Shown here: positions 31,405 to 48,609 of the stretch, piece by piece
Position numbering within the stretch: position 1 is the first letter of the stretch
Layout of the letters: each line of letters starts with the position of its first letter
IMG/VR virus record: IMGVR_UViG_3300021431_002079
Span: 1,975 to 65,974 of that record
Length of the DNA stretch: 64,000 bases
Strand: one strand, 5' to 3'
From: a virus
The notes under the pieces: model-generated
What the model saw: only the letters and a program-made list of their open reading frames with translations
Told to the model about the DNA's origin: nothing
Database searches by the model: none
Program-made: the position numbers and the translations under genes

Positions 31405-31593
31405 ATGAAATCATTAAAAGAATACATAAATGAAGAATTACATGATGTAATTGTTAAAGTTGGCGATTACTGGAGAATAAAAGGTCATGCGGGTAAAGGG
31501 ACAAATACTCCTAAACGAGGATACTGGAAAGCTAAATATAAAACCAGAGAAGATGCTGAAAATGCATTAAAGGCATATTTTGCTAATAAATGA
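31405..31593 (+). CDS. CTS-like-leader small basic protein (62 aa)
   Basis: MKSLKEYINEEL leader; K/R-rich. Confidence 0.6.
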   Translation: MKSLKEYINEELHDVIVKVGDYWRIKGHAGKGTNTPKRGYWKAKYKTREDAENALKAYFANK

Positions 31594-31626
31594 AAATAAC
31601 TACAAAATAATCTATAAAATTAAAGT

Positions 31627-32166
31627 ATGAAAAATATTAACGAATATATAAATGAAAGTTCAAGTTTGTTTGATGATGGGGGATATGGAGACATGGCAAC
31701 AAACTATTTAGACTATTATGATGGTGACAAGAAATTTGGTGATCTTAAGAAGGGTGATATAATATACTTGTATAAATATTCTAATGATAAGATTATAGAA
31801 GTAACTGTCAATGGAACTGTTAAGACACAAAATAATCAAGTATATATAAAGACTAAATCATTCAAAATTAAACCAAATAGTAAATATTGTAAATCTCAAT
31901 CATCATTAGTATTTGGACCAGCAAATGGTAGCAGAAGTGGTCGTAGTGAAGACGATACAAAAGTTGTTGACTATTCTCCATGGAATGTTGAAAAATCTTC
32001 TATTTGTATTAGTTTTGGTGGAGGATATGCATTTGGAACTAACAAAGATAATGTTTTAAAATATGCAAAATCTGACATTACAAGTTCAATTAATAAGATA
32101 CAATCTGATATTGAAGACCTTCAAAATGAAATAAATAAATTGAGTGAAAAATTAAATAATATTTAA
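31627..32166 (+). CDS. CTS-like-leader protein (179 aa) with C-terminal coiled coil
   Basis: MKNINEYINESS leader. Confidence 0.6.
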   Translation: MKNINEYINESSSLFDDGGYGDMATNYLDYYDGDKKFGDLKKGDIIYLYKYSNDKIIEVTVNGTVKTQNNQVYIKTKSFKIKPNSKYCKSQSSLVFGPANGSRSGRSEDDTKVVDYSPWNVEKSSICISFGGGYAFGTNKDNVLKYAKSDITSSINKIQSDIEDLQNEINKLSEKLNNI

Positions 32167-32168
32167 TT

Positions 32169-32360
32169 ATGAAAACAATTAATCAATATATAAATGAAGG
32201 AACTCAAAATAACGAAGTTTTAGATTATCTTAAAAAGTTATATGATACATACACTAAAAAATTACATTCAAACTCAACAGTAATTGCAGATGTTGACAAA
32301 TACAGTTATGTTACTTACGAATTGAAGAAGATATTAAAAAAATTTAACGTTAATATATGA
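32169..32360 (+). CDS. CTS-like-leader small protein (63 aa)
   Basis: MKTINQYINEGT leader; ATGA overlap with next gene. Confidence 0.55.
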   Translation: MKTINQYINEGTQNNEVLDYLKKLYDTYTKKLHSNSTVIADVDKYSYVTYELKKILKKFNVNI

Positions 32361-32854
32361 AAACATTAAATAGTTATATAATACAAGAATCTTTAAAAGA
32401 TAAAATCAAAGCTTTAATAAATAAATTCAAAAAAGAAAAAGTTCCTGAAAAAGTTTATAAAGAAGAAGATTTATTAGAGTATAAAGATAAAGAAATAACT
32501 TTAGAAGATGGTGATGAAATCTTCGACATCTATACAAACACTTTACCTTATAAATCTAGTAGAACATCTGAATTTGAAAAGAATGCATTTAAGCAAGGTT
32601 TGTTCGATTATGCATGGTGTAATTATTCAAAAGATGTAGATAAAAACTTCAGATTTAATGAATTTGGAGATGATTTTGCAGATTGGGGATATTCTCGAGC
32701 TAATGATGAAAGTGGATATGACTGGAATGAAGTTGGTGTTGGGATGATGTTTATGGAACCATTCTTCTGGGGTTGGAAATGTGCGAAGAAATTAAATTTA
32801 AAATATAACTCAAAGGATAAAGTTAAATTACCTTTAAATAGATTTGCAAAATAA
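32357..32854 (+). CDS. CTS-like-leader protein (165 aa)
   Basis: MKTLNSYIIQESL leader. Confidence 0.6.
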   Translation: MKTLNSYIIQESLKDKIKALINKFKKEKVPEKVYKEEDLLEYKDKEITLEDGDEIFDIYTNTLPYKSSRTSEFEKNAFKQGLFDYAWCNYSKDVDKNFRFNEFGDDFADWGYSRANDESGYDWNEVGVGMMFMEPFFWGWKCAKKLNLKYNSKDKVKLPLNRFAK

Positions 32855-32858
32855 AATT

Positions 32859-33455
32859 ATGAAAACAATTAATCAATATATTACAGAATCAAATTACAAG
32901 TCATCAAACTTAGAAGATCTTAAGAAGCAACTTCTAAAAATGCATAATGGTGATCGTATTAATTTCTTGTGGGGTGTATCTCAAAAGGCAACAGATGCTA
33001 CTCAAAAAGATAGATATGTAACATATGCAATGTCTATTGACAAAACTCTAAATAAATATTATACATTCTCTTGTGATTTTATGTTCAGTCAAGGACATGA
33101 AATGGTTAAAGAAATCTGTAAAGATTTAGGAATTAAGAAATGGGCAAGACTTTTAGATATTGCTATAGTTGTAGATTATGAAGATATGGTTAAAATACTT
33201 GATGCAATGCCTAAATATTTTGATAAATACGCTAATAACAAAAAATATTTTAGTTTTGTATCATTTGACTATAAAGAAGCTGAAGAAGAATGTGCTCGTC
33301 AAAAACGTCCATTTGAGATTACTTCATTAGAAGATGAAATTAAAGCCACTGAGCAAGCAATAAAGAATCTTGAACAAAAGAAAGAACAACTTAATAAACT
33401 GAAGAAAGCCCAAGCTGAAGAAGATATGTATAAATGGGCAAATAGTGAAAAATAA
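32859..33455 (+). CDS. CTS-like-leader protein (about 198 aa) with C-terminal coiled coil
   Basis: MKTINQYITESN leader at internal Met of track ORF 32844. Confidence 0.6.
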   Translation: MKTINQYITESNYKSSNLEDLKKQLLKMHNGDRINFLWGVSQKATDATQKDRYVTYAMSIDKTLNKYYTFSCDFMFSQGHEMVKEICKDLGIKKWARLLDIAIVVDYEDMVKILDAMPKYFDKYANNKKYFSFVSFDYKEAEEECARQKRPFEITSLEDEIKATEQAIKNLEQKKEQLNKLKKAQAEEDMYKWANSEK

Positions 33456-33465
33456 AGACAATGTT

Positions 33466-34089
33466 ATGAAGTCACTTAATACTTATATTATAGAATCACA
33501 ACAATCTCATGTAGATGATTTCATTGATTTCTTGCTAAAAAATTCTAAAGAAGGAGAACTTAAGACTAATAATAAATCATACTATGATTATTTTAATGAA
33601 TGTGACCCTTTTGATAATTCAAAGTTTTCACAAAACATTGATATGACTGCTTATGCTGAAGACTATTGTGAAGAACATGAGTTAGATTCTGTATATGATG
33701 ATAAAGAAAACTTCATTAATTATATTAAAGATATAGTTGATGAACAATTGACTTTAGACTTAGATCATAATTTGATAAAGATTGAAAGAGTCATTAGTAT
33801 TGGTGATTCATCATTTTCAAAATATAAAGGAAATATAGGTATATATTGGACTTACATAGAAGGTATGGGTGATTCACATGGTGCTGTAGGTAGTTCAAGA
33901 AACAACATAACTATATGTGCATTAGTGGATCCTAAAGATGTAAATTGGGGAGAGACTATTGCAGCTAATATTATAGATCCAGATGAATGTGAATTAACAT
34001 TAAATGAAGATGCTCCTATACAAATTACAAAGATATTAGATGTTAACAGAAAACCTATAATAGAAAAAAATTTATTATATAAAGCTTAA
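33466..34089 (+). CDS. CTS-like-leader protein (about 207 aa)
   Basis: MKSLNTYIIESQ leader at internal Met of track ORF 33445. Confidence 0.6.
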   Translation: MKSLNTYIIESQQSHVDDFIDFLLKNSKEGELKTNNKSYYDYFNECDPFDNSKFSQNIDMTAYAEDYCEEHELDSVYDDKENFINYIKDIVDEQLTLDLDHNLIKIERVISIGDSSFSKYKGNIGIYWTYIEGMGDSHGAVGSSRNNITICALVDPKDVNWGETIAANIIDPDECELTLNEDAPIQITKILDVNRKPIIEKNLLYKA

Positions 34090-34733
34090 TGAAATCTTTG
34101 CATACATATATAGTCGAAAAATCATCAGATTTATATGGGTCAGAAACTGGTTTAATAATATTTGATATAGATGATACATTAGTTAAAGCAGATTCAAGTA
34201 TTATGAAAATATATAAAAATGAGCCAGGTAAACCAGAGATTGCATTAACAACGGATGAATATGCAAAAGATCCAGATGCAGGTGATTCAAGTAAAAAATC
34301 ATGGTTTGATTATAGAGATTTCAATGATCCATTAAAAGTTTATGATTCTATAGTTAAAGGAACACCATTAATTAAGAATCTAAAAATTATGGATTCATAT
34401 ATTAAAAAAGGTTATGATTTTTGTTTTTTGACGGCTCGTGGTTGTGAAGATGTTGTTAAAAGTGCATTAGATTCATTTTTAGAATTTAGAGATAAAGATG
34501 GTGTATTAAAAAAATTAGGAAATGTATTTAAGAAATCATTATCACATGCTATAAATGATGAAATGAAAAATTATTCAGGTAATAGTGATCCTGAAAAGAA
34601 AGCACAAGTATTAAAAAATTTATGTGATAAATATGATAAAGTGATATTTGTTGATGATGATAAGAAAAATGTAGATGCGGCTAGAAAATTAAATATAAAA
34701 AATCTAACAGTTATTAAAGCTTGGGAAGAATAA
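34089..34733 (+). CDS. HAD-superfamily phosphatase with CTS-like leader (Pnk-phosphatase-like candidate)
   Basis: leader MKSLHTYIVEKS; HAD motif I LIIFDIDDTLV (DxDxT); downstream FLTARG and VIFVDDDKKNV resemble motifs II/IV. Confidence 0.6.
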   Translation: MKSLHTYIVEKSSDLYGSETGLIIFDIDDTLVKADSSIMKIYKNEPGKPEIALTTDEYAKDPDAGDSSKKSWFDYRDFNDPLKVYDSIVKGTPLIKNLKIMDSYIKKGYDFCFLTARGCEDVVKSALDSFLEFRDKDGVLKKLGNVFKKSLSHAINDEMKNYSGNSDPEKKAQVLKNLCDKYDKVIFVDDDKKNVDAARKLNIKNLTVIKAWEE

Positions 34734-34755
34734 ATAAAAAATAAAATAAATATCT

Positions 34756-35406
34756 ATGAAATCATTAAAAGAATATATTATTAATGAATCTTTATCAAAT
34801 GAAATAACTGAATTAAGAAATAAATTAAAAAATTTAGATAAACAAAAAATTTTTGATGGAAATTATAATTTAGATGATTCATTAGATCAAGAATTTTATG
34901 ATATATTAATTTCATTAAATAGTCCAAATTCATCAAATAGTACTTTAATTAGTACATGGAAAATGTTGTTTTCAAAATTAATTGTTGAACCATTAGTTGG
35001 AGAATTAATAGGAGATAACAAATGTGAATACTCTACTATTAAAGTTGATAGAACAGAAAAATGGGATATTAAATATGATAACAATATATTAATAGACATA
35101 AAAGCAACTTATAATAATTATACACATAATTTTGGATTTTCTAAAAAGGATGCAGATTATGTAATAAATTATAATAAACAAGATATTAATAAAAGATATG
35201 TATTATTCGTATACCCAGAAATTAAAACTTGGAATGATGCTACGAAATTATATAAAAATAAATCTGAAGTTGACATGAAACTAATTAGTTATTCAGATTT
35301 TAAAGATATATTAAATAACAATGATTTTGAAGAAAAAAAATCAAACATATTAATTCCATATTCTTTCATTAATGAAAATGATAAATTTAGAAAGTTTAAA
35401 AAATAA
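34756..35406 (+). CDS. CTS-like-leader protein (216 aa)
   Basis: MKSLKEYIINESL leader. Confidence 0.6.
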   Translation: MKSLKEYIINESLSNEITELRNKLKNLDKQKIFDGNYNLDDSLDQEFYDILISLNSPNSSNSTLISTWKMLFSKLIVEPLVGELIGDNKCEYSTIKVDRTEKWDIKYDNNILIDIKATYNNYTHNFGFSKKDADYVINYNKQDINKRYVLFVYPEIKTWNDATKLYKNKSEVDMKLISYSDFKDILNNNDFEEKKSNILIPYSFINENDKFRKFKK

Positions 35407-35426
35407 TTAATTATATTAAAGCTATA

Positions 35427-35459
35427 AGAAAATCTATTAATAATGGATTTTCTTTTTTA
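35427..35459 (+). terminator. rho-independent terminator inside the cassette array
   Basis: stem agaaaatc / gattttct then T6. Confidence 0.5.
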
Positions 35460-35492
35460 TTTTTAAATATAAGAAAATTTTATTAAAACAAA

Positions 35493-36638
35493 ATGAAAAG
35501 TTTAAAAGAATCATTATCAGATAAAGGTATACAAAAATTAACAGATTATCTTAAATCTGCTGAAGGTTTAGAAGATTCAAAAATTGACGAATATATTAAA
35601 GTATTATCAAAACATGCCAAAAAATCAGGTATAAAACAAGATGACTATGAAACATTCTTTAAAAATCATGGTTTATCTGAATTAAATTGGGGAAGAAAAA
35701 ATAGTGCAATTAAACAATTTGTTGATTTATTCTCTGAAAATGATCATATAGATGAATTATCAAACATAGTAAAATATAATGGAACTGTTTCTATTGATAA
35801 TGTAACAGAAACTGGTAATATATTTAAGGATTATTGTAAAGGGTGGGAAGATGAAGCAAAAACAATTGCTACATGGACCAATTCTAAATCGGCTAATGCT
35901 GGACCTTGTGAAATGCTTTTGAAATTTATACTTCATGAAGGTAATTCTAAAACTTTTGGAGATGTTGGAATAAATGATGAAGAAATGGAAGTAAAAGCTG
36001 GAACACTTAAAGGAAAATCTGGTTCAGGCGGTCATGCAGCAGGTCAAAAAGGAAACATTAGAAAAACATCGTCTATATATTATTATTTAGATAAATATTT
36101 ATTAAATATAGAAACATCTAATAAGATTGCAGAAAATAGAGAATATTTGCAAAATGAAAATGGTATTAAAGATTTTAATAATAAATTAAAAGAAGCTGGT
36201 TTACTTGAATCATCAAATTATAAAACGATTGCTAATAATATAGTTGGTGCATTATGCTTCCAATATGATGAAGCAAATACTAATACATTAAATTCTGATA
36301 AATTAGAAAATTTGCAAAAATCAACATTAAAATTTATTAAAGATAATATAAAGGCAGACGGGTTTAATAAACAAGATTTATTAAATTTAGTTGGGTGTAT
36401 TCAATTATATCTTTATTCACAAATAGAAAAATTTGATTATTTTTTCGCTGTGCTTGTAGATAAAAACATAGATAATGAATCTATTAATAATGGCTTTTAT
36501 ATTTGTGTAAAAAATTGTAAAGATAATGATAGTGATTTATTAAATTTTAATAAAATGTTAAAACATTTAAAATTTGGTGTATTAGATTCAACAACATCTT
36601 CACAAGGAAGAACTGGTAAAATATATATAGTTAAATAA
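35493..36638 (+). CDS. hypothetical protein (381 aa) with truncated leader
   Basis: MKSLKESLSD (leader lacking YI); Gly-rich KGKSGSGGHAAGQKGN segment. Confidence 0.5.
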   Translation: MKSLKESLSDKGIQKLTDYLKSAEGLEDSKIDEYIKVLSKHAKKSGIKQDDYETFFKNHGLSELNWGRKNSAIKQFVDLFSENDHIDELSNIVKYNGTVSIDNVTETGNIFKDYCKGWEDEAKTIATWTNSKSANAGPCEMLLKFILHEGNSKTFGDVGINDEEMEVKAGTLKGKSGSGGHAAGQKGNIRKTSSIYYYLDKYLLNIETSNKIAENREYLQNENGIKDFNNKLKEAGLLESSNYKTIANNIVGALCFQYDEANTNTLNSDKLENLQKSTLKFIKDNIKADGFNKQDLLNLVGCIQLYLYSQIEKFDYFFAVLVDKNIDNESINNGFYICVKNCKDNDSDLLNFNKMLKHLKFGVLDSTTSSQGRTGKIYIVK

Positions 36639-37357
36639 TGAAACAAGTAAAAGTGTGTCTAGGAAGATTCCAACCTTTCACATTAGGTCATCTTAAGATG
36701 GCTACTTATAAAGATTTAAAAGGTCCTGATAAAGAGCAGAAAGATACTTTAAGAGAACAACCTAATTTAAAAGAAATATCTAATCAAAAAACAGTCATAT
36801 TAGCTATATCTACCCCAGACGAAAAGGTAGATACTAGGCATCCTTTCAATGATAGTTTAATGAAAGATGAATTTGAATTGATAAAGAAAAACTACAAGGA
36901 TGATATTGAAGATATTATTTATGTTAAGTCAGCTGATATATGTGCATGGGGTGAATTATTAAAACAAAAAGGTTATCAAGCTTCCGTGTGGTTAACTGGT
37001 TCAGATGAGTTTAAGATGTATAAAGGTATGGCAATGAAAGTTCTAGAGTATGAAGAACATAATAGAAATAATTATGATTGCAAAGGAGCTTACACACAAT
37101 CATTTTATGTAGAAGAAATTGAACGTACAGAAGATAAAGATTTTGTATCATCAATATCCGGAACAAAAGTTCGTCAAGCTTTATTAGATAATGATAAAGA
37201 ATTATTTTCAAAGATGATGCCAAAAGGAGCAGATAAATATTTTGATGAATTTAAGAAAGCTGTTGAAAATGCTCCAGAACCTGTAAAGAAAACAAATAAA
37301 AAAGTTAAAGAAGGAATGATGTCTCTTAAGAATTACATATTAGAATCATTAAAATGA
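36638..37357 (+). CDS. cytidylyltransferase-fold adenylyltransferase (NMNAT/NadM-like or PPAT-like); C-terminus carries a leader remnant
   Basis: VCLGRFQPFTLGHL = GRFQPF + (H/T)xGH nucleotidyltransferase signature; ISGTKVRQAL resembles the ISSTxIR motif; no N-terminal leader, but the ORF ends ...MMSLKNYILESLK. Confidence 0.5.
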   Translation: MKQVKVCLGRFQPFTLGHLKMATYKDLKGPDKEQKDTLREQPNLKEISNQKTVILAISTPDEKVDTRHPFNDSLMKDEFELIKKNYKDDIEDIIYVKSADICAWGELLKQKGYQASVWLTGSDEFKMYKGMAMKVLEYEEHNRNNYDCKGAYTQSFYVEEIERTEDKDFVSSISGTKVRQALLDNDKELFSKMMPKGADKYFDEFKKAVENAPEPVKKTNKKVKEGMMSLKNYILESLK

Positions 37358-38283
37358 AATCACTTATAACATACATACAAGAATCTTTAATATTTGAAGG
37401 TGGGCATTCTGTGGATGGTGTTGAACCTATTCGTGGAGATTTAGCAAAAAAAGTTGCAGATGAGATTATTGAAAAAATAAAAAATGAATTCAATATAGAA
37501 TGTGCAGCTCTTGGATCAACAGGTAAGAAAGGTAAAAATCAAACATCTGGAGATATAGATATCGCCGTTCAAATGCAATGGGAAGATAAAGATAAACTTA
37601 TAGATTTTGTTAAAAAGGAATTTCCTGATAGTCCATTTGGAAATATCGTTAACTATCTTAATGTATTTAATATTGGATATAAATATAATGAAGATGGTAA
37701 AGATAAGTTAGTTCAAGTGGACTTTATGTTTGTTGATGATGTTGAATGGGCACAATTTGTTTATTTCTCTCCAAATTTCTTAAAGAATGAATCTCAATTT
37801 AAAGGATCATGGAGGTCAACATTATTAAGAGGTATATGTGCATGTACACCAGCAGAAAAAGTAAACAAAAAATATAAAACAGAATATTTTGATGATGGTA
37901 AGACAGTAAAATCATTTTGGAAGTTTACATTTTCACAGGCTGATGGGTTATTTGCAGATCATAAAACATATGAAGGTAATAAAAAACCTTTGAAAAATCC
38001 TAAGACAATAAAAGACGATAGAGAATACATATCTAAAAATATTGAAGAAATATTACATATGTGCTTAGGTAAAGATGCAACACGAGATGATTGTAATTCA
38101 TATGAGACATTACTTAATTTTATATCTAGTGATAGATATGAATTTAGATCTGTAGAACAGTTACAAAAAATTAAAGAATGGTTATTTGATAATACAGACC
38201 TACTTAGAGAAGCAACAGATCAAGTTAAGAAGGATGCTGAAAATTTATTCGATAATACTATAAAATATATAAAACAAATTTAA
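37354..38283 (+). CDS. Pol-beta-superfamily nucleotidyltransferase with CTS-like leader (paralog A)
   Basis: leader MKSLITYIQESL; AALGSTGKKGKNQTSGDIDIAVQ = hG[GS]...[DE]h[DE]h NTase motif; third acidic residue in VQVDFMFV. Confidence 0.6.
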   Translation: MKSLITYIQESLIFEGGHSVDGVEPIRGDLAKKVADEIIEKIKNEFNIECAALGSTGKKGKNQTSGDIDIAVQMQWEDKDKLIDFVKKEFPDSPFGNIVNYLNVFNIGYKYNEDGKDKLVQVDFMFVDDVEWAQFVYFSPNFLKNESQFKGSWRSTLLRGICACTPAEKVNKKYKTEYFDDGKTVKSFWKFTFSQADGLFADHKTYEGNKKPLKNPKTIKDDREYISKNIEEILHMCLGKDATRDDCNSYETLLNFISSDRYEFRSVEQLQKIKEWLFDNTDLLREATDQVKKDAENLFDNTIKYIKQI

Positions 38284-39158
38284 TGAAATCATTATTAACA
38301 TATATAAAAGAATCATTAATAAATGAAGGTGGCAATGCTGTAAAATCAGAACCAATTCCAGCAGTTATTGCACCAAAGGTATATGACGAAATAGAAGAGA
38401 AAGTACATTCTATATCTAAGTTTAAAGATATAGATATGGCAGCATTAGGTAGTATCGGTAAAAAACCAGATGACCAAACAAATGGAGATATAGATATTGC
38501 TGTTAAAGTTGACACAAAAGAAGAACTTAATGAAATAGTTGATACATGTTTTGATGATTGTGAAATTAACTATAACACAATGAAAACTATTACGTCGTTT
38601 GGGTATCCGTATAACATAGATGGTTATAAAGGAATTGCACAAGTTGATTTTATGATAGTTAAAAATATGGACTGGGCAAAAGCATATTTCCATTCTCCTA
38701 ATCTTAAGGCTGGTGAATCTAAATATAAAGGAGTTGTTAGAACAACATTGTTAAACGATATTATTTCATGTATACCAGTTAAAGATGCTAAAGATGAATA
38801 CTTTGAAGATGGTGTTACAGTTAAACGTCATTGGAAACATACATTTAATACTGAAGGAGTATTTATTCAATTAGTAGATTATTGTGGTAAGAATGGTAAA
38901 CCTGTAAAAAATGGTAAAAAACTTAAAGAGTTTGAAAAATTAGTTACCAATGATCCAATAAATATGGTTAAATTTATATTTGGTGATAATGGTGATATTA
39001 AAGATATAAATTCAGCTGAATCATTATGGGCAGCAATTCACGATAATAATAAATTTTCTTGGGGAGATACTATATTAAAAAATATAGAAGAAAAATTTAT
39101 TAATGACCCTCAAGTGCAAGATAAGATAGATAAAAAGGATTTTCCTTGTAAGTTTTAA
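38283..39158 (+). CDS. Pol-beta-superfamily nucleotidyltransferase with CTS-like leader (paralog B)
   Basis: leader MKSLLTYIKESL; AALGSIGKKPDDQTNGDIDIAVK; AQVDFMIV; clear paralog of 37354. Confidence 0.6.
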   Translation: MKSLLTYIKESLINEGGNAVKSEPIPAVIAPKVYDEIEEKVHSISKFKDIDMAALGSIGKKPDDQTNGDIDIAVKVDTKEELNEIVDTCFDDCEINYNTMKTITSFGYPYNIDGYKGIAQVDFMIVKNMDWAKAYFHSPNLKAGESKYKGVVRTTLLNDIISCIPVKDAKDEYFEDGVTVKRHWKHTFNTEGVFIQLVDYCGKNGKPVKNGKKLKEFEKLVTNDPINMVKFIFGDNGDIKDINSAESLWAAIHDNNKFSWGDTILKNIEEKFINDPQVQDKIDKKDFPCKF

Positions 39159-39179
39159 AAATATATAATATAATAAATT

Positions 39180-39581
39180 ATGAAAAATATAGTAGATTAC
39201 ATATCTGAAGCATTATATGTAAACGAGAGTGCTAATGGTAACCAAGTTATATTTAACGCTTGTATGGAATTAGATAATAATAAAACAATATATGAAAAAC
39301 AACTTTTGCCATTAGTTAAAAATTTAGTAAAGAAACACAAAGATGGTAAGTTCGATATTAAAAAACTTGAAGAATCATCAGTTATAGCTAAGTTATGCCA
39401 AGCATGTTTACGTGCAGTTAAAAGCTCATTAACTGGTGAAGATAGAAAGCGTTTGACTAAATTTGTTACTGGTTGTGTTATTAAAAATGTTGAAAACATT
39501 GGAGAACTAACACTAACAAAGGAAGAAGAAGATTATGCTGTTGAATGGGATTACAATAATTCCGAAAAATGTGGATGGTAA
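39180..39581 (+). CDS. CTS-like-leader protein (133 aa)
   Basis: MKNIVDYISEAL leader. Confidence 0.55.
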   Translation: MKNIVDYISEALYVNESANGNQVIFNACMELDNNKTIYEKQLLPLVKNLVKKHKDGKFDIKKLEESSVIAKLCQACLRAVKSSLTGEDRKRLTKFVTGCVIKNVENIGELTLTKEEEDYAVEWDYNNSEKCGW

Positions 39582-39584
39582 TAC

Positions 39585-40943
39585 ATGGATTATTTAGTAG
39601 ACAAATATATTAAAAAACCTGATTACGTTAAAGAATTGTTTAACAAATCAGCAACCGTATCATTAAAGATTGATGGTTCAGCATTTCAGATATTTTATAA
39701 TAAAGAAGAAGATAAAATAGAATATCATAAACGTGGTGGATCATCAAGTAAGCTTGGTCCAATTATTGATGAGTATACACAATTGTTTACAAAACATTTA
39801 AATGATGCTATAGAGTTTTTTGATAATAAAAAAGATTTATTAAAAGAAAATAAATTCTATGCTATTGAAATATTTAATAATATGTATGTTCTTTTAACTG
39901 TAATAGATAATAATGATAATATAATCACTGAAGTATCTGATATAGCAAGAAAATTAAATATTGAATCTTTACCGATTTTATTTAATGGTAAATTAAAATT
40001 TAATGACGATATTATCTCATTATTAACTTTAGATGAAAATACATCAAATGAAGATTTTATATCAGCAATTAAAGGAACATTTGGACCTGGAGATTATGAA
40101 AAATTCTTAAAAGGAGATGAAGTTGAAGGTATTGTTTTAACATGGGTTGTAGATAATAAACCATTACAATATAAAATTATTAATCCTGCATTTAAGACAA
40201 GACATGAAGCTGAACAAAAGAATAAATTAAAAGAAGCAGAAAAAGATACAAAACAAATAAACAAGTTAATAGAATCTTTATATGATAGACTAAAAGATGT
40301 TGCTAAATATAGAGATGATAACTGGATAAAAAATCTTGATTTAAATTTCTTTGAAATGTGTTCAGATCCTAATTGGTTATCAGATATTAAAAATATAGCA
40401 AAAGAGATAACTCCAAACACTAATAAATGGTTTATACTTCAAACAAATAGAGTAAGCTCAATTATAAAAGATTTATTGGATCATAATGGAAATGAAATGA
40501 AAACCATTTATGAAAAATATTTAATGACTTTCAATAAACCAAAAAAGAGAGCATTTATTATATCTAAAGAATTTCAAAATAATATAAATAACATAATAGA
40601 AAAACTACAATCGGTAAAAGAATCATTAAAATTATATACTAAAATAAATATGAAATCAATATCACAATACATAAATGAATCACAAGATAAGTATTTTACT
40701 GAACAAGAAAAAGGTAAGATACTAAAAGATATGTGGGATAAGGATGGACAATTTTATAAATTTTTAAAAGATAAAGTTAATTCATTATGTGCTGCAGATA
40801 TAAATAATTATTTTGACCAATGTTTAGATGATGAAAGATGTTTAGCAGAATTTGCCTCATATATTAGTATGGTTATCGGTCGTCATAACTTTAGTTTAGA
40901 ACAAGTTAAAAAATTTATGAATACTGAAGATCTTAAAGGATAA
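39585..40943 (+). CDS. RNA ligase-like nucleotidyltransferase (KxDG) fused in-frame to a leader-tagged C-terminal module
   Basis: ATVSLKIDGSAFQIFY (motif I KxDG at residue 28), EVEGIVLTW (motif V-like); an internal leader MKSISQYINESQ at 40650 (codon 356) begins a about 98-aa C-terminal segment that may be a separate gene. Confidence 0.55.
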   Translation: MDYLVDKYIKKPDYVKELFNKSATVSLKIDGSAFQIFYNKEEDKIEYHKRGGSSSKLGPIIDEYTQLFTKHLNDAIEFFDNKKDLLKENKFYAIEIFNNMYVLLTVIDNNDNIITEVSDIARKLNIESLPILFNGKLKFNDDIISLLTLDENTSNEDFISAIKGTFGPGDYEKFLKGDEVEGIVLTWVVDNKPLQYKIINPAFKTRHEAEQKNKLKEAEKDTKQINKLIESLYDRLKDVAKYRDDNWIKNLDLNFFEMCSDPNWLSDIKNIAKEITPNTNKWFILQTNRVSSIIKDLLDHNGNEMKTIYEKYLMTFNKPKKRAFIISKEFQNNINNIIEKLQSVKESLKLYTKINMKSISQYINESQDKYFTEQEKGKILKDMWDKDGQFYKFLKDKVNSLCAADINNYFDQCLDDERCLAEFASYISMVIGRHNFSLEQVKKFMNTEDLKG

Positions 40944-40969
40944 AATATAAAAAAATTATATAAATAAAA

Positions 40970-41260
40970 ATGAAAACAATAAAAGAAATATTATTGGAAG
41001 GAAAAAATAATTCATTACCTTGGAGTTCATCAGCAGCATGGATTTATGTATTGTCATGTATTGCTAATGTAAACGAAAGAAAATTATTTGAATCATTAAA
41101 TAAAAAGGTTTTATCTAATGATGAATCAAAAGAAATTATTAGTTTATTAAAAAGATTTGTTCCAGAAGGATTTAAACTTGAATATATTAATGATTTATTT
41201 GATATTCTTAGAGAATTAAATATTAAACCACAAAAATCTAAATTATTAATTGAAAATTAA
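40970..41260 (+). CDS. small protein (96 aa) with variant leader
   Basis: MKTIKEILLEG. Confidence 0.45.
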   Translation: MKTIKEILLEGKNNSLPWSSSAAWIYVLSCIANVNERKLFESLNKKVLSNDESKEIISLLKRFVPEGFKLEYINDLFDILRELNIKPQKSKLLIEN

Positions 41261-41266
41261 AATGAT

Positions 41267-41604
41267 ATGAAAGACATTAAAGAATATATTTTAGAATTCC
41301 AAAAAACTTGGCAAACAACAATAATAGATATTGCAAAACAATATGTTGTTTAACCTAATGGGGGTGAATATAAAAAAATCAGATATTGAAAAAATGATAA
41401 GTAGTAAGAAAATAGATGGAGAGTTAATTGCTTATTTATGTGAATATATTGCTTATTCTGTAACAAATAAATATGGGGATGATGAAGGAACCTATACATT
41501 TATTTGACAAGCAGATTTTCAATATGAAGGAAATATTGGAAAAATTAGTGTATATAAAGATTATGAAGAATTAGTAACAAAAACATTTAAAAAATATAAA
41601 TAAT
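41267..41604 (+). pseudogene. frameshifted leader-tagged cassette gene (three consecutive short frames)
   Basis: MKDIKEYILEFQKTWQTTIIDIAKQYVV* (41267-41353), then MGVNIKKSDIEK...TYTFI* in +1, then QADFQYEGNIGKISVYKDYEELVTKTFKKYK* in another frame; A7 run at 41383-41389. Confidence 0.45.
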
Positions 41605-42204
41605 ATGAAAACATTAAAAACATTTATTTTAGAATCTCAATCAGAAATTTTACCTATAATAAAAAGAATGATGGGATCAATTGATTATTCAAAACTAAAA
41701 TCATATAATGGAGAACAAGATTCAAACAAATTTGATGTTCAAAAAGAAAATGAACTTTTATTAATTAGTAATATTGATGAAGGCGATGATTTTAAGTTTG
41801 TTGGAACTGCTGAATATTATAATATTGAAACAGGAAAAGATTTCAATAGTTTATCTGATAAAGAAAAGGCAGATTATGATTCTAAAAATGGAGATATTAT
41901 TGTTTTAGATAAAGATAATAATATTAAATTTAGAATTGATGTTAAACTTAGTGATAAATATTTAGGAGCTATATCATTAGGTTCATTAACTAAATTTGAT
42001 AAAGATGGATATTATTTATTAATCTGTAAAACTGGTAAATTCTTCAAATTAGTATCTCATAAAGATGTTGTAGATAATGTTAAGAATGGAAAATTAAAAT
42101 TAAATGCTCCTATAAATAATTATAAAGGTTATGATGTAGAATGGGAAGGTGAAAAATTAACATCAGAATATTTTATTAAAGGAGCAGATTTAAGAAAAAT
42201 TTAA
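41605..42204 (+). CDS. CTS-like-leader protein (199 aa)
   Basis: MKTLKTFILESQ leader. Confidence 0.6.
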   Translation: MKTLKTFILESQSEILPIIKRMMGSIDYSKLKSYNGEQDSNKFDVQKENELLLISNIDEGDDFKFVGTAEYYNIETGKDFNSLSDKEKADYDSKNGDIIVLDKDNNIKFRIDVKLSDKYLGAISLGSLTKFDKDGYYLLICKTGKFFKLVSHKDVVDNVKNGKLKLNAPINNYKGYDVEWEGEKLTSEYFIKGADLRKI

Positions 42205-42215
42205 TAATTTATATT

Positions 42216-42530
42216 ATGAAAAACTTAAATGATTATATTATAGAAAGTGGCCCAGTTAAAGTAACAACTGGTGCAGGTTGCGTAGAAATGATTAAAATAA
42301 TTATTAATGAACTTTCAAAAAATCCTGATTACAAAGGAAAGAATAAAGAATTATGGAAATCTGCAGGACAATTTTTATATGATTATCTTAGAGAGTTAAA
42401 TAATTCTGATTATGAAAAAATTGTTAGTGAATTAGAACTACCAGATTTAAGGAATAACAAAGATGAAGAATTTTCTCCAGATACGGTACAATTTGCAATG
42501 GTATTAAAAATGAAAGACATGAAAAAATAA
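42216..42530 (+). CDS. CTS-like-leader protein (104 aa)
   Basis: MKNLNDYIIESG leader. Confidence 0.55.
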   Translation: MKNLNDYIIESGPVKVTTGAGCVEMIKIIINELSKNPDYKGKNKELWKSAGQFLYDYLRELNNSDYEKIVSELELPDLRNNKDEEFSPDTVQFAMVLKMKDMKK

Positions 42531-42568
42531 AATAAAGTGGGGAATAAACATTTATTTAATAACTTAAG

Positions 42569-42602
42569 AGTATCACAATTTAAAATTGTGATACTTTTTT
42601 TA
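42569..42602 (+). terminator. rho-independent terminator closing the cassette array
   Basis: stem agtatcacaatt / aattgtgatact then T7. Confidence 0.65.
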
Positions 42603-42712
42603 ATTAACATAAATTAATTATTTCACTAATATTTTTATATATATTGTTTTAATTTTACTATCGTTATAAGAAATTAATATTTTTAATTAAATTAATAAAA
42701 GACTATAACAAT

Positions 42713-45241
42713 ATGAAAACAATATATATAACATTACTTTGTATTTTATTAAATTTTACACCTATAAATTTTATACCTGTAAATTCTCAGACTCGTGCAG
42801 AAATGTCAAGTCAACAATGGTGTGGAGTAATGGTTGACACAATTATTGGAAATGATAAGTATCCTGATGTTTTTGATAGAGACCCACAAGGCTTACCTAT
42901 TATATTATATAATGTTGGTACTGGATGTTTTATAACCCAAGGTGGAGATTGGGCTATGGAAGGTCGTCTATTTTATTCTGATTTTGGACGAACTATGTAT
43001 TTATGTAACAATGGACGTATAAACAGTGGTATTACTGAAAGAAATGTTAATGTTAAGAAGAATAGTTTTTGTGTAAGACCACCAGCACCATTTGGAAAAA
43101 ATTGGAATGACATTAAAAACATCAATTTCACTACGTTGATGGATGGTGAATATAGAAACGAAACTTTTCAAAAATGGGAATTTGAACGTATTGAAGGTGA
43201 AACTGGAGATACTTGCACATATTATATGTATCAGAAATTTAATACTAACACAAAATACTACTTTGGTGCTGTCTATGGGGAATACAACGGTGACAAGGGT
43301 GTTGGGCAATTAATATTTCTTGATGATGATCGTTCTTGTTGGACAACAGCACCAGTTAAAGGTGTAACAACAAAATATCAATTAGAAAATGGAGATGAAG
43401 TCGAATTACAAAAACTTTATCAATGGCGCTTAGTTTCCATCGAAGAATTTTTAAGAGTATTAAATAGTGATGAAGCTGGATTAAATCCAAGTGTATCAGC
43501 ATTGATACCAGATAGAGATTTTACTCGTAATGCTATTGATTTCTTTAGTGAAAATCCTAATCATGGTTGGACAATATGCCGTTTAGCTAATCATACATAT
43601 AAAGATGGTGATGATAAACGTTATCCATACACATGGGGTAACTATAAGATGGGATCTGATGTTAATAGTAACAAACAACGTTCAAGAGAATTATTAGAGG
43701 AATCATGGGATTCTCCTGTAAGATTAAAGGCTGTATTTGATGCTGATATAACCCAAGAACGTGGTAAGAAAGATGCTAAATATGGGTTTATGGAATTTGA
43801 AGGTGTTGGATATATTTATTCAAATTTCAAAGTAACTAAACCAGGTTGGTATGAAATAACTTCTATTGCGATTAATCAAAGTGATAATAACGATGCACAT
43901 ATGTTTGCTCGTGTAATAGATGATGCAGATAGTCTAAAACAAGAAAATGAATTTGAAATACCAATAACAGATATACCAAGTTATAGTAGTATTGAATTAG
44001 ATAAAGTATCATTAGGAACATATAAAAAAGGATACGATAATAATGGAAAAGATGGATATGAGAATTGTTTAGTTATGGGTAAAGAATTACTTGCCAATGG
44101 TGAAGTTCATCAAAGAAAAGTTTGGGTATTAGTTTCTGAAAAGGATTTTAATGATGGTAAGAAAACAATTCGTGTAGGTATTAGGAAAGATAATGCTACA
44201 ATGTCTAATAAAACTAATGGTGGTTATTATGACTTAGATTGGGTATGTGTAGATGATATACGTGCAATATATATGGGTATGTCTCCAGCATTCTTTTATG
44301 AAGACATGGAAACTTTAAATTACCTTGATGATATAAATCACGAGGATCTTTACTTAGCTAATGAATACCCAAAACGTGGTCCTGAAGGTGAGTATGGAGG
44401 AGCTGTTAGTATACAACGTAAGTTCACTAATAATGAATGGAATACATTTTCATTTATATTACCATTAACTGGAGAACAAATTCGTAATGCATTTGGTGAT
44501 AAAACTGAATTATTAGAATTAGTTGGTATTGGTACATTATCAAATAATGAAAATATTATTGATTTTAAAACAGTTAATTTAATAACATTAGATCATGTTG
44601 TTGTACCAGGAAAACTTTATATGATTAAACCATCAAAGTTACCAGTGTATGGTGAAAGTCCTCGTAAGACAAGGGCGTACTATTATGACTTAGGTAGAAT
44701 GTTTTTCTCAATTAAATCTGAACCACAAGAGTATAAATATCCTGTTATAGATTTAACAAAGTTACCATATAAGAGTACTGATGTTGGTTCATATCAAGGT
44801 AGAAATAATGGAACAGAACATGTGACATACATTCAAACTCCAAATTACAGTAATTTTAGAGTTGATAGATATGGGAATGTGATGGCTAAAGTTAATGCTG
44901 TAGATAGTACATATGCACCAAAAGGAGCTTATGTAATGAGTGGTGGAAAAATGTATGAATTAGCTAAAGATACTCCACTTAAAGGATTCCGTGGATGGAT
45001 AACATTAACCCATAGCATATTTGCAAATAGTAGTGCAGCTGCTTTAGGAACACCATTTTCAATAAATGGTATATTTGATCAAGATGAAACCCCAATAGAA
45101 ACTGACACAAAAATAATTACATCTATAAAAAACACCAATACATCAATATATGATATAACTGGTAAAAAGATTACTAATTCAATTAACTCTTTATCACCGG
45201 GTTTATATATCGTAAATGGAAAAAAATTACTTATAAAATAA
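42713..45241 (+). CDS. secreted protein (842 aa) with Sec signal peptide and T9SS (Por) C-terminal sorting domain
   Basis: N-terminus MKTIYITLLCILLNFTPINFIPVNSQT (signal peptide); C-terminus ...NTNTSIYDITGKKITNSINSLSPGLYIVNGKKLLIK matches the Por_Secre_tail pattern (vYDlxGrxV...LxxGiYivk...kk). Confidence 0.7.
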   Translation: MKTIYITLLCILLNFTPINFIPVNSQTRAEMSSQQWCGVMVDTIIGNDKYPDVFDRDPQGLPIILYNVGTGCFITQGGDWAMEGRLFYSDFGRTMYLCNNGRINSGITERNVNVKKNSFCVRPPAPFGKNWNDIKNINFTTLMDGEYRNETFQKWEFERIEGETGDTCTYYMYQKFNTNTKYYFGAVYGEYNGDKGVGQLIFLDDDRSCWTTAPVKGVTTKYQLENGDEVELQKLYQWRLVSIEEFLRVLNSDEAGLNPSVSALIPDRDFTRNAIDFFSENPNHGWTICRLANHTYKDGDDKRYPYTWGNYKMGSDVNSNKQRSRELLEESWDSPVRLKAVFDADITQERGKKDAKYGFMEFEGVGYIYSNFKVTKPGWYEITSIAINQSDNNDAHMFARVIDDADSLKQENEFEIPITDIPSYSSIELDKVSLGTYKKGYDNNGKDGYENCLVMGKELLANGEVHQRKVWVLVSEKDFNDGKKTIRVGIRKDNATMSNKTNGGYYDLDWVCVDDIRAIYMGMSPAFFYEDMETLNYLDDINHEDLYLANEYPKRGPEGEYGGAVSIQRKFTNNEWNTFSFILPLTGEQIRNAFGDKTELLELVGIGTLSNNENIIDFKTVNLITLDHVVVPGKLYMIKPSKLPVYGESPRKTRAYYYDLGRMFFSIKSEPQEYKYPVIDLTKLPYKSTDVGSYQGRNNGTEHVTYIQTPNYSNFRVDRYGNVMAKVNAVDSTYAPKGAYVMSGGKMYELAKDTPLKGFRGWITLTHSIFANSSAAALGTPFSINGIFDQDETPIETDTKIITSIKNTNTSIYDITGKKITNSINSLSPGLYIVNGKKLLIK

Positions 45242-45518: not shown

Positions 45519-46202
45519 ATGTTAAATATAAACACATATATAAACGAGAAACTTAACATATCCACCAAGTACACCTGTAAACCAAAAGATAAATATGAGC
45601 TTAGAGATATAATAGAAAAACGTCTTGAGAAAGATAAAGATGTAGACTTAAATGATATAGATGTGTCAGATATAACAGATATGTCAATTTTATTCTGGAA
45701 ATTAGACCCTCATAATATAGACATAAGTGAGTGGAATGTTTCAAAAGTTAAAAGCATGGAGAGTATGTTTTTTAGTTGTAAAAACTTTAATTGTGACTTA
45801 AGCAATTGGAATGTCTCTAATGTTTATAATATAACATCTATGTTTAGTGAATGTGAAAGTTTTAATTCAGATTTAAGTAACTGGGATGTTTCGAATGTTA
45901 TAAACATAGATAGCATGTTTGACAATTGTAAAAAATTTAATTGTGATTTAAGTAGTTGGAATGTCTCAAAAGTTAAAAATATGTCTTGTATGTTTTTAAA
46001 TTGTGAAAACTTTAATTCAGATATAAGTGAATGGGATGTCTCAAAAGTTACAGAGATGAGATACATGTTTTATAATTGTAAAAATTTTAATTTTGACTTA
46101 AGTGGTTGGGATGTCTCAAATGTTAAAGATATGACAAAAATGTTTGAAGGTTGTACATCATTAAAAAATAAACCTAACTGGTACCATGAAGAAGATAACT
46201 AA
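45519..46202 (+). CDS. DUF285 / 26-residue-repeat protein with leader (array 2, copy 1; 7 repeats)
   Basis: MLNINTYINEKLNIS; 227 aa. Confidence 0.7.
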   Translation: MLNINTYINEKLNISTKYTCKPKDKYELRDIIEKRLEKDKDVDLNDIDVSDITDMSILFWKLDPHNIDISEWNVSKVKSMESMFFSCKNFNCDLSNWNVSNVYNITSMFSECESFNSDLSNWDVSNVINIDSMFDNCKKFNCDLSSWNVSKVKNMSCMFLNCENFNSDISEWDVSKVTEMRYMFYNCKNFNFDLSGWDVSNVKDMTKMFEGCTSLKNKPNWYHEEDN

Positions 46203-46716
46203 TTACATACAAGAAAAACTAAATTTATCTAAGTACACTTGTAAACCAAAAGATAGATTAGAACTTTTAAGTATAATAGAAAGACGTCTTGAACGAAATA
46301 AAGATGTAGATTTTAATGACATTGATGTATCAGATATAACGGATATGTCTTTTCTATTTGAAGAATTAGATCCCCATAATATAGATATAAGCGAGTGGAA
46401 TGTTTCAAAAGTTGAAGATATGAGGAGTATGTTTAACGGGTGTGAAAATTTTAATTGTGATTTATCTGAGTGGGATGTCTCAAATGTTAAACACATGAAC
46501 CAAATGTTTAAAAATTGTAAAAACTTTAATTCAGATTTAAGTAGCTGGAATGTATCACAAATTAAATATATGTTTGATATGTTTGATGGGTGTAAAAAAT
46601 TTAATTCAGATTTAAGTGGATGGAATGTATCTAATGTTAAAGATATGTCAGATATGTTTGATGGATGTAATTCGTTAAAAAATAAACCAAATTGGTACAA
46701 TGAAAAAACTAAATAA
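46186..46716 (+). CDS. DUF285 / 26-residue-repeat protein with leader (array 2, copy 2)
   Basis: MKKITNYIQEKLNLS; 17-nt overlap with previous gene. Confidence 0.7.
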   Translation: MKKITNYIQEKLNLSKYTCKPKDRLELLSIIERRLERNKDVDFNDIDVSDITDMSFLFEELDPHNIDISEWNVSKVEDMRSMFNGCENFNCDLSEWDVSNVKHMNQMFKNCKNFNSDLSSWNVSQIKYMFDMFDGCKKFNSDLSGWNVSNVKDMSDMFDGCNSLKNKPNWYNEKTK

Positions 46717-48584: not shown

Positions 48585-48609
48585 GTTTAATTTTAAGTAA
48601 TTTTTAAAA

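Follow-up and report, generated by a model that had tools for sequence, protein, structure and literature searches.

A leader resembling the T4 capsid-targeting sequence as a putative address and exchange junction for cargo modules of an uncultivated megaphage

Introduction

A 64,000-nt stretch of viral DNA (IMG/VR record IMGVR_UViG_3300021431_002079, positions 1,975–65,974; hereafter the window, whose numbering is used throughout unless a related locus is named) contains many genes starting with codons for the same 10-residue leader, of consensus M-K-x-[LI]-x-x-[YF]-I-x-E. A scan that did not require the methionine located just two in-frame copies away from an N-terminus, one at the end of a nucleotidyltransferase gene (37316) and one within an RNA ligase gene (40650). 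What is a leader doing in such places? A first-pass annotation had taken both copies, together with a broken gene nearby, for scars of cassette insertion, deletion and fusion through the leader-coding nucleotides. We favor a different reading, to which we assign a probability of roughly 0.6. By analogy with T4, the leader (called tag below, irrespective of its position) would be a portable address, the counterpart of the T4 capsid-targeting sequence, and would also serve as the exchange junction between cargo modules.

Occurrence and conservation of the leader

The degenerate DNA pattern ATGAARNNNHTNNNNNNNTWYATHNNNGAR matched the window 23 times compared with 0.05 matches expected from 100 shuffles, and all matches lay on the plus strand at starts of open reading frames (ORFs). 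With a relaxed peptide scan, 26 matches were obtained on the plus strand and one on the minus strand. About 25 (at least 23) tagged genes are thus present in 64 kb, and their leaders fall into two sub-classes. The first, MK[ST][LI]xxYIxE[S..], heads unrelated cargo genes at 15993 and across 31405–42530. The second, MKxIxxYIxEKLNLS, heads about 12 paralogues with DUF285 repeats.

Mean pairwise nucleotide identity of the leaders was 65% over 33 nt, with 32–40% in the flanks. The 33 nt upstream of the ATG, at 40% identity versus 32–36% for unrelated coding flanks, were not conserved. Codons at the conserved leader residues varied synonymously (TAC 14 and TAT 10, ATA 20 and ATT 5, GAA 19 and GAG 6). 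As the residues themselves stay constant, selection on the leader acts at the peptide level. The codon register was identical in every tag, and exact in-register runs between tags reached at most 23 nt, with a median length of 7 nt.

These data bear on the idea that the element acts as DNA or RNA, i.e. as a translation enhancer or as a site-specific recombination or integron-like site, with peptide conservation as a by-product. The higher nucleotide identity of the leaders relative to their flanks is in line with such a role, and A-rich codons after the ATG are common translation enhancers. However, synonymous codons vary, the upstream 33 nt are unconserved, and internal copies without ATG keep the peptide motif far from any start, which makes this explanation very improbable. 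An integron-like or site-specific cassette array was rejected in view of the peptide-level conservation with synonymous variation and of the scanned proteins, among which no integrase was seen; the proteins scanned against family libraries for an integrase-like gene represent a minority of the ORFs in the window.

Similarity to the T4 capsid-targeting sequence

The capsid-targeting sequence of T4 is MKTYQEFIAE (PMC8442874). Of its residues, 4 and 7 mediate targeting, whereas processing depends on 8 and 10; cleavage by T4 gp21 follows L/I-x-E (PMC9026906). The leader in the window is conserved at positions 1, 2, 4, 7, 8 and 10 and ends in I-x-E; M1, K2, a hydrophobic residue at position 4, an aromatic one at position 7, I8 and E10 are common to the T4 sequence and to MK[ST][LI]xx[YF]IxE. 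To judge from these residues, it has the make-up of a T4-type capsid-targeting sequence, i.e. a short shared propeptide with determinants at positions 4/7 and 8/10. The N-terminal location expected of such a propeptide was observed in the other cargo genes but not in the nucleotidyltransferase and the ligase. Like the leader of the T4 proteins IPI, IPII, IPIII and Alt (Mullaney & Black 1996; see PMC9026906 and PMC3012670 for reviews), it is about ten residues long and common to otherwise unrelated proteins.

As in T4, the genome that carries a leader with the gp21 motif at its end also has genes for a protease of the Peptidase_S77 family and for a capsid protein of the Gp23 family. The prohead protease gene (51532–53280, plus strand) encodes an N-terminal domain of the T4 gp21 family (Pfam PF03420, Peptidase_S77, 45.8 bits with a cut-off of 27; PHROG 207, 2.5e-42), and by analogy this protease is the candidate for cleavage of the leader behind Glu10. 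The major capsid protein of the T4 gp23 family (53382–55139, plus strand; PF07068, Gp23, 7e-31; PHROG 138) starts with MFINEQ. Both genes lie 10 kb from the array of tagged genes, which is embedded in the late structural block and shares its strand. From the conserved positions, the terminal I-x-E, the gp21 and gp23 genes and the location in the late block, we infer a capsid address and a cleavage site. The analogy to internal-protein (IP) loci of T-even phages drawn in the first-pass annotation was apt in this respect, given the gp21 and gp23 families and the leader match at the functional positions.

Could the leader direct proteins elsewhere, e.g. to export, another compartment, regulated proteolysis or another structure? 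Some of the tagged proteins are odd capsid cargo, namely the nucleoside diphosphate kinase encoded at 15993–16400, a HAD-family phosphatase and the many DUF285 repeat proteins. Yet the leader has no hydrophobic signal-peptide core, agrees with the T4 sequence at each functional position that has been mapped, and has the gp21 motif I-x-E as its end; moreover, the protease and capsid genes are 10 kb away, and the array belongs to the late structural block of that strand. We consider a non-capsid destination quite unlikely.

A tag at the C-terminus of a nucleotidyltransferase

The first of the two unusual copies belongs to ORF 36638–37357 (plus strand), annotated before as an adenylyltransferase. 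Its product, a HIGH-motif nucleotidyltransferase (cytidylyl/adenylyl type) of 239 aa with GRFQPFTLGH at residues 9–18, matched cytidyltransferases in PHROG (1e-10 and 3e-9), and the Pfam matches to CTP_transf_like and HIGH_NTase1_ass were below cut-off. As described in the earlier annotation, the protein starts with MKQVKVCLGRFQPF, without an N-terminal leader, and ends in a leader copy (...KEGMMSLKNYILESLK). This copy, MMSLKNYILE, is encoded at 37316–37345 (residues 227–236), and the SLK tail (37346–37354) and a TGA stop (37355–37357) follow directly, so that the C-terminal element spans 37316–37357 on the plus strand. The next gene overlaps as ATGA, with its ATG at 37354 and the genuine leader MKSLITYIQESL. 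Both tags are thus 38 nt apart, and they are 71% identical.

For comparison, 13 related loci (L001–L013, of which module maps cover 10) and 105 protein homologues were used. Tags were counted with a strict pattern at a fixed distance from a domain motif, which for the nucleotidyltransferase was MPKG, present as an anchor in 52 homologues. A leader was found 15–50 residues past MPKG in 41 of these 52 proteins, lacking Met in 14 of the 41. In 25 of the tagged proteins the tag was followed by a tail of at most 15 residues, mostly 3–5 (SIQ, SLK, SIK and similar), and 11 of these short-tail forms had L, I, F or S instead of M at position 1. In the remaining 16, an in-frame module followed the tag, and these modules belonged to 13 unrelated families. 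Distant homologues (~30–37% identity; P0177, P0210 and P0211) likewise end in a leader-like motif. In codon alignments, S-L-K-N-Y-I-L-E-S at the C-terminus was constant with synonymous changes, and the linker just 5′ of the tag varied freely in length and sequence.

Several homologues display the tag as a junction. In L001, the nucleotidyltransferase continues through the tag into a module of family F6 in frame. In L007, the nucleotidyltransferase, a single tag and the orthologue of the Pol-beta-type nucleotidyltransferase at 37354 form one ORF of 529 aa with the junction directly after ES; by sequence, this is the product to be expected from a crossover between tandem tags such as those at 37316 and 37354. 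The homologue P0130 has both tags in one frame, 7 residues apart. A further pair of proteins was noted: P0111 carries a whole 150-aa cassette behind the nucleotidyltransferase tag (cf. L013 2500–2952), and P0112 only the ends of this cassette, SLGY+EKVQSYIK. P0112 looks like an internal deletion by which a fusion was turned into a short-tail form.

An internal tag in an RNA ligase ORF

The second copy is located in ORF 39585–40943 (plus strand), which encodes 452 aa. As the first-pass annotation had noted, the leader MKSISQYINESQ begins in frame at 40650, at residue 356, with no stop codon in between: 355 sense codons precede it, and 97 extend from the leader to the stop. The first part (39585–40649, residues 1–355) has no N-terminal leader and is predicted to be an Rnl2-type RNA ligase. 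It contains a KIDG motif (residues 28–31) that is invariant in the alignment, and a Foldseek search with an AlphaFold2 model returned T4 Rnl2 structures as top matches in the Protein Data Bank (PDB; 2hvr, 2hvq and 1s68, probability 1.0). The Pfam RNA_ligase match in the window was weak and below cut-off, although PF09414 is recorded for homologues, and a PDB-sequence profile search with the ligase alignment gave nothing at E < 0.01. The tag itself (MKSISQYINE, 40650–40679, residues 356–365) is followed by the F6 module (40680–40943, 87 aa, with the pattern DKYF..EQEKG..DMWDKDG..CLDD.RC..EDLKG). In the AlphaFold2 model of the whole ORF (mean pLDDT 86.7), residues 1–344 and 369–445 formed confident domains, and pLDDT was below 50 at residues 345–357 and 360–368. 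The tag therefore lies in what is predicted to be a flexible linker (residues 345–368, nt 40617–40688).

The suggestion that a former downstream cassette had been fused to the ligase was supported, as F6 is a separate leader-tagged gene in other genomes (L003 15825–16118, L010 12406–12732, L002 11141–11467, L008 11744–12040). F6 is also fused behind a second HIGH-nucleotidyltransferase family (P0065–P0083) and behind a Pol-beta nucleotidyltransferase (P0084–P0097), and in many of these fusions the junction tag lacks Met. Among 97 proteins matching the 452-aa ORF, tags were counted in the 64 with a SKEFQ anchor. A tag was present ~29 residues past SKEFQ in 40 of them, and five further ligases have a one-residue-longer variant, NIKSFEEYFINE, without Met. 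Thirteen of the 40 tagged ligases end with a tail of at most 15 residues (10 of the 13 without Met), and 27 are fused to modules of at least seven families. Ligase partners include F6, F3 (window gene 42216), F39 (window gene 32859), DUF285 repeats and several unique modules; F6, F3, F39 and DUF285 each occur both as free tagged genes and as fusions. More distant ligases end straight after the catalytic domain, without a tag. When ligases and nucleotidyltransferases were pooled, Met occupied tag position 1 in 36 of 43 fused forms versus 17 of 38 short-tail forms.

A simpler account of the ligase ORF would be that the leader at 40650 is the start of a separately translated gene, and that read-through from the ligase reflects an incidental stop loss, yielding a joined protein without a role. 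The ATG of the window copy, the Met retained in 23 of 27 fused ligases and the free-standing F6 genes of L003, L010, L002 and L008 all agree with this account. It does not explain why ligases bear the leader with nothing behind it, as in the 13 short-tail forms, nor why Met is absent in four fused ligases, the five NIKSFEEYFINE forms, the nucleotidyltransferase fusions P0065, P0067, P0076, P0077 and P0080 and the Pol-beta fusions P0084–P0097. In addition, in-frame linkage recurs with at least seven unrelated modules. We therefore regard a separate start as unlikely, if somewhat less so than the other alternatives considered here.

Exchange of modules at the tag

Nucleotide alignments place the module boundary at the tag. 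In blastn comparisons, homology to other ligases stopped at 40661–40682, i.e. 11–32 nt into the leader, and homology of the F6 body, which is located differently in other genomes, began at 40677–40692. The switch between both thus falls within the 30-nt leader (40650–40679) or on its 3′ border. On a neighbor-joining tree built from the ligase domains of 59 taxa, with C-terminal regions scored as 10 states, at least 21 changes of state were required by Fitch parsimony; the same partners occurred in both major clades, and sisters carried different partners. A comparison of the locus across relatives, as suggested in the first-pass annotation, showed variable cassette content and breakpoints within the leader. 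For the C-terminal and internal copies, recombination through the leader is hence supported by the mapped modules, by where blastn homology ends, and by the ligase tree. These sequence comparisons support the view that modules have been exchanged, fused and separated at the leader between related genomes.

The closest relative, L013, shares 94.5% nucleotide identity with the window over 39015–40975 and has the same ligase~F6 fusion, with an additional 80-aa gene after the ligase. A different cassette follows its 96-aa gene; homology to the window stops at 41297, at the end of the next leader. An orthologue of the window cassette at 31627 is placed downstream, with an alignment starting at 31626. 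Taken alone, these L013 end points are weak evidence, since shared leaders lengthen any alignment by ~30 nt. In L008 (7615–11056; ligase ~65% identical), the tag is precisely absent from all four enzymes: the nucleotidyltransferase ends in ...VIINI and the ligase in ...NIYKN, and the Pol-beta proteins begin at ...GGHS and GGYAVKS. Neighboring genes, F6 included, retain it. The clean absence from four enzymes shows that the tag is a separable label and not part of the enzymes.

Are the C-terminal and internal copies then non-functional scars, as first proposed? Real fusions and cassette differences exist between genomes, P0112 (SLGY|EKVQSYIK) resembles an internally deleted cassette remnant, and the Met of the tag decays in short-tail forms. 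However, the motif is kept in most homologues (41 of 52 nucleotidyltransferases, 40 of 64 ligases), in both major ligase clades and in nucleotidyltransferases of ~30–37% identity, and it persists where Met is lost. Residues 4, 7, 8 and 10 remain intact despite synonymous changes, and the adjacent upstream linker varies freely; neutral remnants of 10 codons would not last in this way. These observations speak against the scar interpretation, which we hold to be improbable. The persistence of the copies is rather in agreement with a tag that has a function at these positions.

A decaying tagged gene at 41267–41604

The third element of the earlier proposal was a leader-tagged gene at 41267–41604 (plus strand; leader 41267–41296) said to be broken into three frames. 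We compared it with intact homologues (P0098–P0107, 122–132 aa) and with DNA of L012 and L011. It is indeed a broken tagged gene, but only two frames are involved: the segments beginning MGVNIKK and QADFQYEG share one frame and are parted by an in-frame TGA (41505–41507), where homologues have GGA. Frame 0 is ended by a TAA (41351–41353), where homologues have GAA or GAT. The frameshift, with one additional base, lies in the A7 run at 41372–41378 and not at 41383–41389 as stated before; a nearby A6 run occupies 41389–41394. As two nonsense codons are also present, resequencing of the homopolymer could not restore an intact ORF.

The gene is chimeric. Its 5′ part up to 41483 matches L012 10001–10375, with L011 100% identical over 41385–41483. 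The 3′ part (41465–41604) matches the 3′ end of a distant paralogous cassette (L012 12053–12442, L002 10735–11136). Both matches overlap at 41465–41483, in a shared stretch coding for NKYGDD. To judge from these alignments, 41267–41604 is a genuine decaying pseudogene, which arose by a ~2.1-kb deletion between paralogous cassettes inside the gene body, the three lesions having been gained before or after. It does not serve as evidence for recombination through the leader, as had been claimed, because all three lesions and the junction sit in the gene body. Two ways to rescue the reading frame were considered and rejected. For stop-codon recoding, both TAA and TGA would have to be sense codons, yet TGA ends the nucleotidyltransferase at an identical position in four genomes. 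Programmed frameshifting would be at odds with the intact homologues, which read through, and with the two nonsense codons of the window copy.

The frameshift in an A7 homopolymer might raise the suspicion that the broken gene and the fusions are artefacts of sequencing or metagenome assembly, and one database protein is an obvious chimera: P0060 (386 aa) joins the N-terminus of an arginyl-tRNA synthetase to the 3′ part of ligase~F6. P0060 probably arose during assembly, and it illustrates why a lone metagenomic fusion calls for corroboration from other sources. Such corroboration exists for the ligase~F6 and nucleotidyltransferase-tag architectures, which recur in dozens of independent ENA, JGI and Logan assemblies, and the same fusion is present in L013 at 94.5% nucleotide identity. 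With two point nonsense codons in the pseudogene besides the homopolymer change, artefacts are an extremely improbable explanation.

Comparison with known systems

Internal proteins of T-even phages share only their leader, and their loci are highly variable (PMC3012670, PMC12373910, PMC2839356). In T-evens, the locus is an exchange hotspot with more than 30 known IP variants (PMC2839356, PMC12373910, PMC3012670). As in these hyperplastic loci, cassette content in the window and its relatives differs between close relatives, with the leader alone in common, and breakpoints fall in sequence shared between cassettes, the pseudogene junction at 41465–41483 being an exception here. Judged by sequence, the locus appears to work like the T-even internal-protein loci, and the tag has the features that characterize their leader. 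The shared substrate differs, however. In T-evens, it is described as an early-promoter-based, PeSL-like sequence tied to the IP loci (PMC2839356), whereas promoter homology was absent here and homology was confined to the ~30-nt coding leader. The lineages differ as well: the window derives from a ~0.4-Mb uncultivated phage of low GC content, whose capsid protein is at most 37% identical to those of GenBank phages. With ~25 tagged genes in 64 kb, the system is larger than that of T4 (three IPs and Alt). It also differs from T4 in its enzymatic cargo, which comprises three nucleotidyltransferases, an Rnl2-like ligase, a nucleoside diphosphate kinase and a HAD phosphatase, besides DUF285 repeat proteins. 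A further difference from T4 is the presence of tags at C-termini and within ORFs, where they link two cargo domains; a point of likeness is that T4 Alt and gp21 are trimmed at their C-termini as well (PMC9026906). New relative to the T-even IP system are thus the lineage, the ~25-gene scale, the enzymatic cargo, the lack of upstream promoter homology and the C-terminal and internal tag junctions. We know of no report for T-even loci of exchange creating in-frame fusions of enzyme and cargo, as seen here.

The giant myoviruses phiKZ, 201phi2-1 and SPN3US likewise encode a gp21-like protease cutting after Glu, and package and eject many proteins, including enzymes such as the virion RNA polymerase (PMC5694885, PMC9026906). 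They differ in the cleavage motif (S/A/G-x-E) and in their propeptides, which mostly comprise 80–130 residues without a shared 10-mer; leader-defined cassette arrays or tag-linked fusions are unreported for them. In encapsulin cargo-loading peptides and the C-terminal coat-binding domain of the P22 scaffold, a short portable terminal peptide steers unrelated enzymes into an HK97-fold shell. As these peptides can be C-terminal, C-terminal shell-targeting tags are mechanistically plausible. They have no sequence similarity to the tag described here, and to our knowledge encapsulin tags are neither removed by a maturation protease nor known as recombination junctions. The ligase ORF also resembles viral polyproteins, in which folded domains are joined by flexible segments with the motif of the virus's own protease, as is predicted for its linker. 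Unlike viral polyproteins, such ORFs consist of no more than two or three parts, which sister genomes encode as separate genes, and their linker would double as an address tag. In the literature, no description was found of a C-terminal or internal tag as the junction of polyprotein-like ORFs. A paper on Jug phages (PMC12880540) mentions neither leaders nor internal proteins nor an RNA ligase, and a leader scan of 50 kb around the capsid gene in the nearest GenBank relatives, LR756500.1 and Tenacibaculum phage PTm1 (~11% and 22% of the respective genomes), gave no hits.

Proposed role of the tag

In the model that we propose, the tag would bind cargo to the prohead core, and the gp21-type protease (51532–53280) would cut after its Glu10. 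Enzymes whose catalytic motifs lie close to the N-terminus (within the first 10–30 residues) would bear the tag C-terminally instead, followed either by a tail of 3–15 residues or by another cargo module in frame; the latter arrangement would amount to a two-part polyprotein with the tag as linker. Since every tag has the same register and ~65% identity, a crossover between two copies would always be in frame. Such recombination may delete cassettes, swap the module behind an enzyme or fuse two genes, and a 38-nt tandem duplication, as between 37316 and 37354, may split a fusion into two tagged genes. By this analogy, the copies at C-termini and within ORFs probably function as address and cleavage sites of cargo that resembles polyproteins. 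Capsid targeting, proteolytic cleavage and the recombination mechanism are the parts of the model that we infer.

Several points weigh against the model. Packaging and cutting are carried over from T4 through sequence analogy only, and the T4 sequence is proven as an N-terminal one; reports of its function at a C-terminal or internal position were not found. Met is kept in most fused forms (23 of 27 ligases, 13 of 16 nucleotidyltransferases), a retention that would also fit independent internal starts or young fusions. The homology shared by tags is short, and recombination may depend on microhomology. In tightly packed genes that begin with a tag, gain or loss of whole cassettes would break near tags as well, and it is solely the in-frame fusions and the nucleotide end points that tell tag exchange from such events. 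Finally, the clusters in the protein database are phylogenetically non-independent.

An extension of the model is tentative and, in our view, rather less likely to hold than to fail. According to this extension, the tag would be position-independent, loading proteins into the prohead and being cut even at a C-terminus or between domains. Megaphages of this clade would then build cleavable cargo polyproteins that are rewired tag-to-tag, and the cargo (Rnl2-like ligase, three nucleotidyltransferases, HAD phosphatase, plus a P-loop kinase in relatives) would enter the host with the DNA as a kit for RNA repair or modification. Phosphatase, kinase, ligase and nucleotidyltransferases together resemble, by their sequence families, a toolkit for RNA end-healing and sealing. 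If so, the injected kit could offset tRNA or mRNA cleavage by host nucleases ahead of any phage gene expression, and the tagged ligase and nucleotidyltransferase set would suggest an anti-defence strategy; the idea of an injected RNA-repair kit is speculative.

Should the tag be a capsid address, the injected proteome of uncultivated megaphages could be read from sequence, with ~25 proteins per 64 kb in this case, and a tag of 10 codons would move any gene into or out of it (cf. the untagged enzymes of one lineage). With tags at C-termini and inside ORFs, the concept of capsid targeting known from T4 would be widened to further positions and to cargo in polyprotein form. The T4 capsid-targeting sequence itself serves in the engineering of T4 as a protein-delivery vehicle. 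The locus would also provide a clean natural case of gene fusion and fission via a short in-register coding repeat.

The array of cargo genes

The tagged cargo genes form an array of ~11 kb (31405–42530, plus strand) between a head-closure-like gene (29567–31207), which lies 5′ of it, and the head module (48–55 kb). Leaders of the array start at 31405, 31627, 32169, 32859, 33466, 34089, 34756, 37354, 38283, 39180, 41267, 41605 and 42216, and degenerate ones at 35493 and 40970. All genes of the array described in the following are on the plus strand. The gene at 35493–36638 (381 aa) has a leader lesion, as seen by comparison with its orthologues: an in-frame deletion of four residues (MKSLK----ESL versus MKHLSEYFFESL in L002 and L010) has removed tag positions 6–9, and targeting or cleavage may have been lost in this protein. 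Downstream of the HIGH-motif nucleotidyltransferase, two paralogues of the Pol-beta type follow, the first (37354–38283, family F2) with the leader MKSLITYIQE and a GDIDIAV motif, the second (38283–39158) with the leader MKSLLTYIKE. A tagged gene of 133 aa (39180–39581, leader MKNIVDYISE) precedes the ligase. Behind the ligase and F6, a 96-aa gene with the degenerate leader MKTIKEILLE (40970–41260; orthologue L013 2201–2500) and the pseudogene are succeeded by two intact tagged cassettes, F30 (41605–42204) and F3 (42216–42530), the latter being joined to the ligase in L001, L005 and L006. For the small cargo proteins, no informative match was obtained from Pfam or PHROG.

Other tagged genes were recorded within the array, elsewhere in the window and in relatives. 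The HAD-family phosphatase is encoded at 34089–34733. The nucleoside diphosphate kinase (15993–16400; PF00334, 3e-20) carries the leader MKSLSVYIQE and, as a metabolic enzyme, would be unusual capsid cargo. About 12 tandem DUF285 (PF03382) paralogues occupy 16401–17000, 23045–26994 and 45519–47221 and share the leader MKxIxxYIxEKLNLS.KYTC; elsewhere, the DUF285 repeat module is fused behind the RNA ligase (P0012, P0014, P0023 and P0024). Relatives possess a tagged P-loop kinase with matches to Zeta_toxin, AAA_33 and KTI12 (L002 13480–13986, L003 16149–16673, L005 11382–11888, L010 13064–13570).

Source phage and neighboring genes

The G+C content of the window is ~27%, and besides the head genes it encodes a tail sheath (58873–61926). 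Among GenBank phages, the best relative of the capsid protein was that of an uncultured 462-kb phage (36.6% identity), and identity to the capsid proteins of Lak, Tenacibaculum and PAU phages was ~31%. With capsid relatives this distant (36.6% at most), no annotated close genome is available; megablast of 33000–43000 against GenBank phages and tblastn of the RNA ligase against phages both returned zero matches. Related metagenomic contigs span 376–465 kb. These sizes and the gp21 and gp23 matches indicate that the source is an uncultivated myovirus of ~0.4 Mb with a T4-type head.

Further observations concern the head genes and their surroundings. In a long C-terminal extension of the protease ORF, seven tandem 36-nt repeats (52612–52863) encode WITEEFAPEVQN, and an acidic, lysine-rich low-complexity stretch lies ahead of them; a weak KilA-N match was also seen. 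The start of the capsid protein, MFINEQ (53382–53399), reads MFINEQ or MFLTEN in relatives (L009 ~6176, L012 ~19447). It corresponds to a leader that lacks its first six residues and retains the [YF]-[IL]-x-E half; this may reflect a propeptide of 5 residues or mere chance. The scaffold-like, protease and capsid genes are directly preceded by 48069–50724, where an SPFH/Band-7 protein of 704 aa, whose long coiled region is rich in Ala/Glu/Lys, is encoded beside a 171-aa membrane protein, a pair kept in relatives (families F15 and F19). Finally, an ORF of 842 aa at 42713–45241 has a hydrophobic N-terminus, no Pfam or PHROG match, and the last residues ..GLYIVNGKKLLIK. This end may represent a C-terminal domain of type-IX secretion as in Bacteroidota, which would hint at a Bacteroidota host.

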